The translations under genes and the position numbers were made by a program. Below, piece after piece: positions 4,327 through 11,839 of a stretch of 15,946 nt of DNA (within the stretch, counting starts at the first letter, position 1; each line of letters opens with the position of its first letter). The stretch lies in IMG/VR virus record IMGVR_UViG_2645728048_000025; one strand, given 5' to 3'. Source of the stretch: a virus (taxonomy: Duplodnaviria; Heunggongvirae; Uroviricota; Caudoviricetes). Under the pieces are notes generated by a model. That model had not been told where the DNA came from and searched no databases. It was given only the letters and a program-made list of their open reading frames with translations.

Positions 4327-5763
4327 TCAGAATCCTCCTTTCTTCTTGGACTGCGGTTCCTCGCGTTCACGGCGGCGCATTTCAGCAGACTGTTGGTCTG
4401 TGTCATAAATAGCGCCATTTGCCTGTATGCAATACACCGTGCCGGTATTGCCATGACGATTGAGGCGAAGGATTAGTTCGGTTTCACCAGGAGGAACGCT
4501 GTCATCAAAAGCACCTTCACGATGGATCCCCACCCAATAATCGCAATCCTGTTCAATCTGCCCTGTATCTCGTGAGTCACTTGGTAATGGGCGTTTATTG
4601 GTTCGGCTTTCCAGTGCGCGGTTAAGCTGTGTCAGAAGCACAACAACGCAATCAAGCTCTTTGGCAAGGTTCTTCAGTCCTTTGGTGATCATGCCGTAAG
4701 CAAGGTCGTTGCGATCGGCCTTCTCAGCAGTCATTAGTGTCAGGTAATCGACCAGAATCATGCCAACACATCCTTTTTCTCGCTTGATTCGACGGCTTTC
4801 GCTGACGATTTGAGCCAGAGATAATCCCGGCGTGTCGTCGATGTAAAGCAGGTCGATTTCACTCAAGCGATTGGCTGTTTCGATCGCCCTGTTGAAGTCA
4901 CCATCGTAATCACCCTGATAGCCGTCATCAGCGTCATTTGTCGCCGGAAGGTAAAAAATATTCGGGTTAACACCTGACTTCTGTCCCACCAGTTTTTCCA
5001 GTATCTGGTCACCTGGCATTTCAAGGCTGAACATCAGAGCGGGCTTTTTCTCATGCACTGCACAGTTGATTGCCATCTGGCTGTATAGCGTCGTTTTCCC
5101 CATCTTAGGGCGAGCGCCAATGACAAACAAAGAGCCTTTCACCAGACCTTTCGGTGACAGCATCCTGTCCAGCGATGGGATCCCTGTGCTCATTCCCCGT
5201 TGTTCGCCTGATGGGTCAAATCGCTTCTCAAGGTCGCTAACCCAGTCTTCCATGACCTCACCAAATGAGCGAAGGCCGCGACGCGATCCGGTTTTTGCAT
5301 GGTCTGTCAGTTGCGTGAAAATCGCCTGAATAGCTTCGTACTTCTGCGTTGCAGTCATTCCATTGCGGGAATAGAGCAATTCCGTCGCTTCAGTCATGCG
5401 GTTGATGGCGTAGCGTTCCATTGCGGTTTCACGAACCTGCATTGCATAGGCAACGATGTTTGCTGCGCTTGGCGTGTTCTTTGCGATCTCAGCGATATAA
5501 GCAAAACCGCCAACAGACGCCGTTAACGATTTACGCTCCAGTTCATCGAAAAGCGTCAGGCCATCTACTGGCTTTTGCTCCCGGTGCATTCTGGTTATTT
5601 CTTCGAAAAGGATTTTGTGTGGTCGGCCGTAAAATGAATCAGGCTTCAGCATCGCCAGAACTTTCTGGACGCGCTCACTGCTGTCATCATCCAGAAGCAA
5701 TCCACCAATCACCGCCTGCTCTGCCTCGATGCTATGGGGCGGCGCATAAAAATTATCGGTCAT
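4327..5763 (-). CDS. Replicative DNA helicase, DnaB family (P22 gene 12-like)
   Basis: Walker A GARPKMGKTT and DnaB-like layout over about 478 aa. ATG at 5763 (MTDNFYAPPH) preceded by GAGGGTGAA is preferred over the track's GTG start at 5778; it overlaps the O-like stop by 11 nt. Confidence 0.88.
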   Translation of the reverse strand: MTDNFYAPPHSIEAEQAVIGGLLLDDDSSERVQKVLAMLKPDSFYGRPHKILFEEITRMHREQKPVDGLTLFDELERKSLTASVGGFAYIAEIAKNTPSAANIVAYAMQVRETAMERYAINRMTEATELLYSRNGMTATQKYEAIQAIFTQLTDHAKTGSRRGLRSFGEVMEDWVSDLEKRFDPSGEQRGMSTGIPSLDRMLSPKGLVKGSLFVIGARPKMGKTTLYSQMAINCAVHEKKPALMFSLEMPGDQILEKLVGQKSGVNPNIFYLPATNDADDGYQGDYDGDFNRAIETANRLSEIDLLYIDDTPGLSLAQIVSESRRIKREKGCVGMILVDYLTLMTAEKADRNDLAYGMITKGLKNLAKELDCVVVLLTQLNRALESRTNKRPLPSDSRDTGQIEQDCDYWVGIHREGAFDDSVPPGETELILRLNRHGNTGTVYCIQANGAIYDTDQQSAEMRRREREEPQSKKKGGF

Positions 5764-9711: not shown

Positions 9712-9882
9712 ATGCAACAGTTCGCTATTGCAGGGGCGGCATCGGTTCGCCCTTTCAACCCGATTTTATCGGTGCAGCATTCACGAAAAAATATTTTAAC
9801 CGGAGCAGACTTTAAACAACCAAGAATGAAAAGTTTGCTCGAAAAGCTTTGGGATATTTTGAAACAACAAGGCCGTCCATGA
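9712..9882 (+). CDS. cIII: CIII-like protein (56 aa; putative FtsH-inhibitor that stabilises CII)
   Basis: MQQFAIAGAASV ... SLLEKLWDILKQQGRP, resembling lambda CIII as recalled (MQYAIAG ... RLIDILNQPG); AAGGAG 7 nt upstream of the ATG. Confidence 0.55.
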   Translation: MQQFAIAGAASVRPFNPILSVQHSRKNILTGADFKQPRMKSLLEKLWDILKQQGRP

Positions 9883-10037
9883 GTTTTACAGATAACTGGT
9901 CAGACGAAGAATTCATTCGTCAGATGAAAGAATTAATCGGTAACGAAGGAGATATTCATGTCACTTGCAACCACAGTGAAGGAGAGCAAGTTACAGAGAC
10001 GCATGTACACGCAGAAAGCTCTCTGGTATCGCCATAA
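9879..10037 (+). CDS. Small acidic protein (52 aa) translationally coupled to cIII; Kil-position ORF
   Basis: ATGA overlap with the cIII stop; MSFTDNWSDEEFIRQMKELIGNEGDIHVTCNHSEGEQ...; no recognisable family. Confidence 0.4.
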   Translation: MSFTDNWSDEEFIRQMKELIGNEGDIHVTCNHSEGEQVTETHVHAESSLVSP

Positions 10038-10136
10038 TGGCGACCGCGAAGGAATGCGGGTATGCCTTAATTTGTCCCGAGTCGAAGTATTAAATCAGCG
10101 TTATTTCCTTGGGCCTTGTCCATTCTGAGGTGAATT

Positions 10137-10844
10137 ATGGATTTGAACAAATTCGATGAGCCATTCAGCCCTGAAGATATCGAATGGCGAATACAGCAAA
10201 GCGGTAAAACACGCGATGGCAAGGTGTGGGCTATGGTGCTGGCTTATGTCACGAACCGGGCAATCATGAAACGCCTGGACGATGTTTGCGGCAAAGCAGG
10301 ATGGCGCAATGAATACCGCGATATTCCCAACAACGGCGGCGTTGAATGCGGCATATCAATAAAGATTGATTCCGAATGGGTAACCAAATGGGATGCTGCT
10401 GAAAACACGCAGGTAGAAGCCGTCAAAGGTGGTCGTTCCGGTGCAATGAAGCGCGCTGCCGTTCAGTGGGGAATCGGTCGGTATCTGTATAACCTTGAGG
10501 AAGGTTTCGCACAAACATCTCTCGATAAAAAGCAGGGGTGGCACAGGGCAAAACTGAAGGATGGAACAGGATTTTACTGGCTCCCTCCATCGCTTCCGGG
10601 ATGGGCAATCCCAGCATCAGATAACAAACCATCACCAGAAAATACCAACCAGAAATCTCCATCGGTTGACTGCGAACAAATCCTGAAAGACTTCAGCGAT
10701 TATGCGTCAACAGAAACTGACAAGAAAAAACTCATCGAGCGTTATCAGCGTGACTGGCAATTAATGGCTGGCAATGAGGATGCGCAGGCTAAATGCGTTC
10801 AGGTAATGAGCATCAGAGTTAACGAACTAAAACAGGCGGCATAA
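10137..10844 (+). CDS. Single-strand annealing recombinase: Rad52/Sak-like core with an Erf-like C-terminal tail
   Basis: Core motif AVQWGIGRYLYNLEEG is typical of Rad52-family annealing proteins; the C-terminal 60 aa (ILKDFSDYASTETDKKKLIERYQRDWQLMAGNEDAQAKCVQVMSIRVNELKQAA) resembles the C-terminus of P22 Erf as recalled. GAGGTGA RBS. Confidence 0.72.
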   Translation: MDLNKFDEPFSPEDIEWRIQQSGKTRDGKVWAMVLAYVTNRAIMKRLDDVCGKAGWRNEYRDIPNNGGVECGISIKIDSEWVTKWDAAENTQVEAVKGGRSGAMKRAAVQWGIGRYLYNLEEGFAQTSLDKKQGWHRAKLKDGTGFYWLPPSLPGWAIPASDNKPSPENTNQKSPSVDCEQILKDFSDYASTETDKKKLIERYQRDWQLMAGNEDAQAKCVQVMSIRVNELKQAA

Positions 10845-11351
10845 ATGGCAAGCAGAGGCGTAAATAAGGTGATTATCCTTGGTCGGGTAGGACAAGACCC
10901 GGAAGTTCGATACTCACCATCAGGAACAGCGTTCGCTAACCTGACAATAGCCACGTCAGAACAATGGCGAGATAAAAATACTGGCGAGCAAAAGGAATTG
11001 ACTGAATGGCATCGTGTTGCTGTATCCGGGAAACTGGCTGAGGTCGTGGGGCAGTATGTGAAAAAAGGTGATCAGATTTATTTCGAGGGAATGCTGAGAA
11101 CCAGAAAGTGGAAAGACCAGTCAGGGCAAGACCGTTACACAACCGAGGTTCATGTCGGAATTAATGGCGTGATGCAGATGCTTGGCGGCATTGGCGACAG
11201 CAAACAACAAGCAGCCAGCAGGCAATCACAGAAGCCACAGCAGCAATCATCACCAGCACAACACAACGAACCTCCGATGGATTTTGACGACGATATACCC
11301 TTTGCACCAGTAACTCTCCCCTTCCCTCGTCACGCTATTCACGCAATTTAA
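10845..11351 (+). CDS. ssb: Single-stranded DNA-binding protein with a 15-aa extension beyond the DDDIPF tip
   Basis: OB-fold N-terminus ([39 protein letters not shown]), Gln-rich linker, MDFDDDIPF, then [15 protein letters not shown] before the stop. Confidence 0.85.
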
Positions 11352-11364
11352 TCAGGAGAAAATC

Positions 11365-11661
11365 ATGCCAGCGCCTCTGTATGGTGCGGACGACGCGCGC
11401 CGCTGTTCCGGCAATTCCGTATCGGAGGTGCTGGATAAATTCAGAAAAAACTACGACCTGATAATGTCGCTACCGCAGGAAACGAAAGAGGAAAAGGAAT
11501 TTCGCCACTGTATATGGCTTGCAGAGAAAGAAGAACGCGAGCGAATTTACCAGACATCAATCCGACCATTCCGCAAAGCCACATATACCCACTTCCCTGA
11601 ATATATCGACCCGCGCCTGCGTAATTACCGCTCACGCTATGGCGCTATCAGTAATGACTGA
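11365..11661 (+). CDS. Hypothetical protein (98 aa)
   Basis: ORF with AGGAG upstream; no recognisable family. Confidence 0.5.
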
Positions 11662-11671
11662 GGAATTTACC

Positions 11672-11839
11672 ATGAGAGGACTTGCATACAATCCCGGAAT
11701 TCTTCCGGCAGAAATGATTATTCGCCAACGCGTAAAGCCAATGCCATCGATAGAGGAATTGCTTAAGAGAAATTCTTTTCCATCAGTGAATCAAAACAAA
11801 TATCTGAATGCGATGTGGCGTAAAGGAGGCAAGCAGTGA
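11672..11839 (+). CDS. Hypothetical small protein (55 aa)
   Basis: Internal ATG of the track ORF 11519..11839, preceded by GAGGAA; begins 11 nt after the previous stop. Confidence 0.4.

Follow-up and report, generated by a model that had tools for sequence, protein, structure and literature searches.

The gene at positions 10,137 to 10,844 of the window, i.e., the whole stretch of 15,946 nucleotides analyzed here (IMG/VR record IMGVR_UViG_2645728048_000025), very probably encodes a two-domain single-strand annealing protein (SSAP) of the lambdoid PL-operon module, in which a repeatedly exchanged C-terminal tail most likely serves to bring the annealing ring to a partner. Direct observations cover the make-up of the domains, the tail's homology, the position of the boundaries and the recurrent exchange. 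The gene product is an ordinary, widespread and previously described "Erf domain swap" protein of P22-like/lambdoid phages.

Domain architecture of the recombinase

The gene and its parts were delimited as follows, with the basis of each given in brackets.

10137..10844, + strand: SSAP recombinase gene, ATG start, 235 aa plus stop (ORF list, translation)
10137..10607, + strand: Rad52-type annealing core, residues 1–157 (Pfam PF04098, AF2, Foldseek)
10608..10670, + strand: variable, flexible linker rich in P/S/N, residues 158–178 (AF2 pLDDT, alignment)
10671..10841, + strand: C-terminal three-helix domain common to P22 Erf, residues 179–235 (BLASTP, DNA similarity, AF2)

The AlphaFold2 (AF2) model, which was built on a 46-sequence alignment and had a mean pLDDT of 82.8, was laid out as an alpha/beta core (residues 1–157), a disordered linker and a three-helix tail. 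The pLDDT was mostly 85–95 in the core and below 50 over residues 162–176. Tail helices were predicted at residues 179–192, 196–209 and 214–234, with a pLDDT of approximately 90 in the full model and 93 when the tail was modeled alone. In the alignment, the family-invariant columns were mostly within the core, and the linker residues were without consensus; L183, F186 and R227 were the tail residues invariant within the family of the window protein.

The preliminary description had proposed a chimera of a Rad52/Sak-like core and an Erf-like tail. As regards the core, Pfam Rad52_Rad22 (PF04098) matched residues 4–136 on profile positions 7–153 of 153 with 91.9 bits and E = 5e-26 (gathering cut-off, 20.3 bits), and GIGRYLY was located at residues 112–118, inside the core. 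Pfam ERF (PF04404) gave no match at E <= 10 to the whole window protein or to either half. The likeness to Sak amounts to this shared Pfam family, to which Rad52, Mgm101 and the lactococcal phage Sak also belong. When the full model was compared with the PDB using Foldseek, the top 17 matches were Mgm101 and human RAD52, with probabilities of 0.72–1.0 (at least 0.87 in 16 of the 17) and E = 6e-4 to 6e-2; the TM scores were modest because the full-length model was the query. As Mgm101 and RAD52 were the top matches, a Rad52-type core was supported, and the modeled fold is in keeping with the Rad52-type beta-beta-beta-alpha arrangement. The C-terminal regions of the eukaryotic Rad52 and Mgm101 proteins are unrelated to the window tail; that of Rad52 binds RPA/Rad51.

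Comparison with P22 Erf

The window protein and P22 Erf have a common core-hinge-tail layout, but only the tail aligned. The sole BLASTP alignment covered residues 157–235 of the window protein and 134–205 of Erf (79 columns, 63% identity, E = 2e-30), and a tblastn search of phage records with residues 171–235 matched the P22 erf gene at 71% identity and E = 2e-23. The C-terminal domain of P22 Erf (residues ~148–205) is thus matched by a homologous domain of approximately 57 residues (~179–235) in the window protein, with identities of 63–72%. The core of P22 Erf (erf from NC_002371) matched a different Pfam family, namely, ERF (PF04404), over residues 5–146 with E = 4.6e-46, and the two cores were only about 14% identical in a global alignment. 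Both resemblances are therefore real, far beyond chance, and the chimera holds. The extent given for the tail in the preliminary description, the last 60 residues, is also accurate.

One profile did align with the protein from end to end. The phrog_1097 profile matched residues 1–235 on positions 2–251 of 251 (E = 1.2e-129), whereas P22 Erf matched only the C-terminal part of this profile (129–251) and its core belongs to phrog_155. Since phrog_1097 is a family with the same composite architecture and P22 Erf matches its C-terminal part only, the end-to-end match leaves the chimera unrefuted; it indicates instead that the chimera is old and widespread, not peculiar to the window. The "Erf" proteins of this family, i.e., Sf6 gp28, mEp235 gp32, HK75, ε34 gp36, ST64T and L, have the same architecture end to end, with tails 85–97% identical to that of the window, and members of the Sf6/mEp235/ε34 type occupy the same place in the PL recombination module; otherwise there is essentially no difference.

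Homologs of the window protein at E <= 1e-3 formed 5,593 clusters. Among the best 120 of these, PF04098 was found in all 120, and the proteins were Enterobacterales-wide, 56–97% identical and covered over the full length in nearly all cases. The gene was present at >=95% nucleotide identity in 402 of 5,426 complete E. coli genomes, and the nearest phages were mEp235, HK75, mEpX2, Sf6 and IME10.

Layout and DNA boundaries of the recombination module

The neighbors of the recombinase gene were as follows.

9849..10128, + strand: two overlapping small ORFs at the P22 arf position, 9849–10037 and 9958–10128 (phrog_2123, E = 1e-41; phrog_1723, E = 9e-36)
10845..11351, + strand: phage SSB gene, 168 aa, starting right after the recombinase stop codon (Pfam SSB PF00436, E = 1.6e-36)
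11365..11661, + strand: abc2, anti-RecBCD protein 2, in the same recombination module (Pfam Anti-RecBCD_p2, E = 4e-62)

In a PHROG scan, the other large ORFs included Ant, a methyltransferase, a DnaB-like helicase, an O-like initiator and cII on the - strand, and the + strand carried a cI-type repressor, an N-like antiterminator and the recombination module. The window shows a lambdoid (pro)phage early region. The gene under study and P22 erf both lie between arf-type small ORFs and abc genes; P22 differs in having abc1 rather than ssb downstream, in addition to its ERF-family core.

At the DNA level, the upstream match between the window and P22 was confined to 10674–10844 (171 nt, 78%). This similarity began at codon 180, which is the start of tail helix 1, and stopped exactly at the stop codon. 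No DNA similarity to P22 was found in the ssb region of the window, where P22 has abc1, and similarity resumed at 11355–11814 (abc2 and beyond) with 85%. Positions 9879–11351 of the window were 97% identical to mEp235, including the gp32 region that corresponds to the recombinase gene. HK446 combines an ERF core with another tail, and its matches to the window were limited to 9879–10129 (88%, the small-ORF region) and abc2 (97%). Because the similarity is patchwise, the module is a mosaic of small ORFs, core, tail, ssb/abc1/gp40-like gene, an optional exo and abc2. In related loci, the place directly 3' of the recombinase was held by ssb, abc1 or an HK97 gp40-like gene.

A gene of ~182 aa, annotated as a 3'-5' exonuclease or exodeoxyribonuclease VIII-like, lies between ssb and abc2 in mEp235, ε34 and others. 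In mEp235 it is located at 4786–5334 of locus L002. The window has only 13 nt at that place (11351–11365) and, therefore, a module without that nuclease, unlike mEp235 and ε34; the exonuclease gene was found in 44 of 145 window-type loci.

The two small upstream ORFs are in different frames with an 80-nt overlap; both are annotated in mEp235, and both PHROG labels read "recombinase". The first showed a faint N-terminal likeness to Arf (E = 0.052, common "SDEEFI"). Either the small-ORF pair or Arf was found upstream in related loci, with either core.

Recurrent exchange of cores and tails

A tblastn search with residues 171–235 gave matches in 182 of the 50,697 phage records searched. Tail-only searches of protein databases returned 17 fragments without full-length proteins (word-indexed database) and 14 matches, mostly fragments (phmmer against 1.84 billion representatives); the census was drawn from IMG/VR loci instead. 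It comprised 308 loci, namely, the window, 6 phage records and IMG/VR contigs fetched with four tail queries, and the tail-bearing ORF of each was typed by BLASTP against reference cores and tails. The counts below are biased by the queries, although the qualitative result is robust, and the window itself is one of the 162 loci in which a Rad52 core carries a window- or P22-type tail.

Rad52 core with window-type tail: 160 loci
Rad52 core with P22-type tail: 2 loci
Rad52 core with Ehr49-type tail: 29 loci
ERF core with P22-type tail: 5 loci
ERF core with HK446-type tail: 82 loci
ERF core with Ehr49-type tail: 30 loci

The P22, HK446 and Ehr49 proteins matched Pfam ERF at E = 1e-22 to 5e-46, and the Rad52-type and ERF-type cores compared were 13–17% identical. 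Core and tail phylogenies disagreed, and the identity matrix was incongruent, as seen in the following pairs.

Window and Salmonella-type Rad52 protein (L097): core 99%, tail 83%
Salmonella-type Rad52 protein and P22: core 13%, tail 88%
P22 and HK446: core 86%, tail 40%
Rad52-TC3 and ERF-Ehr49: core 17%, tail 64%

From this incongruence it follows that the tail (or the core) was exchanged several times, as differences in rate would be insufficient. The suggestion that the tail is swappable was thus strongly supported by the census. A reading without any true chimera, in which the Rad52 and ERF types belong to one superfamily with a slower-evolving C-terminal domain, could draw on the proposal that Sak, Redβ and Erf share a Rad52-like fold (PMC2896510) and on the coverage of the whole window protein by phrog_1097. 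It is nevertheless highly improbable. Tails 88% identical on cores 13% identical, beside a tail 83% identical on a core 99% identical, refute it; ERF cores 86% identical carry tails of only 40% identity, and the DNA edges are sharp, with 78% nucleotide identity beside regions of no detectable similarity.

Recombination within the gene was not always at the domain boundary. The DNA similarity between P22 (L001, 2075–2564) and HK446 (L003, 2090–2566) ran to erf nucleotide 490 and ended inside the first tail helix, after the common "PEQVLKAF", not in the linker. As this breakpoint lies within the tail, exchange points are not limited to the domain boundary.

Several candidates were set aside. The Salmonella phage GE_vB_TR (49% tail match) was dropped because its record is marked UNVERIFIED and the gene in it is broken. 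What looked like "alternative tails" on nearly identical cores (P0108, P0041, P0114, P0133 and P0136) were frameshifted or truncated gene calls, the frameshifted ones reading, e.g., into the +1 frame of the window, "HHQKIPTRNLHRLTANKS". Likewise, P0139, which had no Pfam match, was a frameshifted Rad52-core gene.

Proposed role and candidate partners of the tail

Annealing activity and ring formation are expected of the window protein, which would have the same role as P22 Erf, i.e., that of the annealing protein of its module. The N-terminal Rad52-type domain would form an oligomeric ring or filament, bind ssDNA and anneal complementary strands. A disordered linker of ~20 residues tethers to it the 57-residue three-helix domain homologous to the P22 Erf C-terminus, and horizontal recombination inside the gene has moved this tail between cores of the Rad52 and ERF families more than once. 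Judging from Redβ, the most likely role of the tail is to recruit the ring to a partner. The candidates are the acidic C-terminal tip of SSB, whether of the host or of the phage, and the RecBCD resection machinery as modified by Abc2, or both. A predicted disordered tether with a small folded domain fits such a recruitment role.

λ Redβ follows the same logic of an annealing core, a flexible linker and a small helical C-terminal domain, and its C-terminal three-helix domain binds λ Exo and the host SSB tip (PMC11611040). The likeness of layout suggests a functional analogy for the tail. No detectable sequence-profile or specific structural similarity was found between the window tail and the Redβ C-terminal domain (PDB 6M9K). 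No homolog of λ Exo, the partner of Redβ, is encoded in the window, whose module uses Abc2 (RecBCD hijack) instead. In a survey of SSAPs, different families were found to share, by domain shuffling, a C-terminal domain remotely homologous to that of Redβ (PMC8093625). Cryo-EM of the Erf-like ring formed by SECΦ27 Gp77 shows a flexible three-helix C-terminal region at the periphery, atop the N-terminal ring (PMC13017515).

Of 145 window-type loci, 139 had abc2 no more than 2.5 kb away, as did every HK446-type locus. Modules with the P22-type tail also almost always carried abc2. Whichever core they had, only 1 of 52 loci with the Ehr49-type tail had an abc2 that BLAST could detect; examples of such loci are L006 (Erwinia phage vB_EhrS_49) and L247–L308. 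This scarcity could reflect host range or a different anti-RecBCD/resection partner.

The adjacent ssb gene, which the preliminary description had linked to the tail, offers a narrower proposal, namely, that the tail is a docking module specific to the phage SSB encoded next to it and that tail and ssb co-evolve and travel together. The window has ssb directly 3' of the recombinase gene, as do 71 of 81 window-type (TC0) loci, the HK446-type tail is followed in 81 of 82 loci by an SSB-type gene like gp40 of HK97, and Sak4 of HK620 is stimulated by its cognate phage SSB via the SSB C-terminal tip (PMC5928155). However, the HK446 loci are near-clonal, with tails 98–100% identical, and so the association with the gp40-like gene does not represent independent observations. 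P22 has the tail but no phage ssb, erf being followed by abc1, and in the Salmonella-type loci (tail cluster TC1), the cores of which are 99% identical to that of the window, the next gene was abc1 in 43 of 76 and ssb in 33. As the DNA similarity to P22 ends at the recombinase stop codon, tail and ssb are separable. Both SSB C-terminal variants, i.e., an IPF end and a 15-aa extension, also occurred with the same tail clusters: among 155 phage SSBs from related loci, 86 had the conserved extension and 60 ended at IPF, and no correlation of the variant with tail cluster or core type was found among the 155. Accordingly, a specific link between the tail and the adjacent phage SSB is not favored, because P22 lacks ssb, many loci have abc1 instead and the SSB variants cross tail clusters; we regard this proposal as unlikely. 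The tail may bind the acidic IPF tip that host SSBs and phage SSBs have in common.

In the window SSB, the last 15 codons (11304–11348) add 15 residues beyond the canonical acidic tip, making DDDIPF internal. Partner proteins of SSB recognize its free C-terminal Phe. The internal position of DDDIPF might change the partners engaged.

It is similarly improbable that the tail has no partner at all and serves as an intramolecular or oligomerization element regulating the ring, through auto-inhibition at the DNA groove or ring-ring contacts, with the mosaicism reflecting a conserved crossover stretch. The conserved 3' end of the gene does sit at a module junction where the flanking genes differ, the P22/HK446 breakpoint in tail helix 1 shows that not all exchange was at the linker, and models of Redβ let the C-terminal helix occupy the DNA groove (PMC11611040). 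Against this, the domain is confidently folded and conserved at the protein level. The tail residues kept across both core families were L183, W207, G212, Q217, I226, R227, E230, L231 and A235; that hydrophobic-core positions and R227/E230 were kept in both families despite identities of 33–40% points to selection acting on the protein, not on DNA homology. The long disordered tether is, in addition, typical of recruitment domains.

Recruitment by the tail, the preferred reading, can be extended speculatively. The tail may be a portable specificity adaptor, whose subtype sets which resection or SSB partner loads the annealing ring: for the window- and P22-type tails, this would be the canonical SSB tip, Abc2-RecBCD or both; for the HK446-type, an SSB of the HK97 gp40 type; and for the Ehr49-type, another partner in modules lacking abc2. 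We hold this extension to be doubtful, if somewhat more plausible than docking to the adjacent SSB or a tail lacking any partner. If it were true, tail swaps would re-wire the recombinase to a new host or module, providing a handle for the portability of recombineering.

Previous descriptions, naming and relevance

The domain swap is real but common and already published. Nothing was found that is new in kind, as the swap has reportedly been noted since the genome papers on Sf6, ES18 and ε34. "Erf domain swaps" were described in the ε34 genome paper of 2008 (PMC2629481), and a swap of Erf domains was described in the phage L genome paper of 2020 (PMC8022706). In a census from 2025, the annealing proteins of lambdoid phages were grouped according to the annealing domain they carry (PMC12315714).

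As an example of mosaicism within a gene of lambdoid phages, with the join at a domain boundary, the gene is clean enough for a textbook. As the C-terminal domains of SSAPs govern partner and host compatibility in recombineering, an interchangeable natural tail on two different annealing cores offers a ready-made means of finding out what these tails bind.

Database labels for the protein are misleading, "Erf-like" and "Rad52/Rad22 family" each being half right: the "Erf" label comes from the tail alone, and the core is of the Rad52 type. In phrog_1097 and RefSeq phage records, the protein is called "Erf-like ssDNA annealing protein"; PGAP uses "Rad52/Rad22 family DNA repair protein" in E. coli genomes, and GenBank has "Rad52/22 family" for mEp235. 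The HK446-type protein with the ERF core is labeled "Bet" in some records (mEp043). P22 Abc1 (L001, 2692–2973) showed weak Pfam matches to sigma-70 region 4 and other helix-turn-helix models; its match to Sigma70_r4_2 (E = 3e-6, 27 bits against a cut-off of 25.7 bits) accounts for the label "sigma-70 family RNA polymerase sigma factor" that the gene at this position bears in some records of Salmonella phages.
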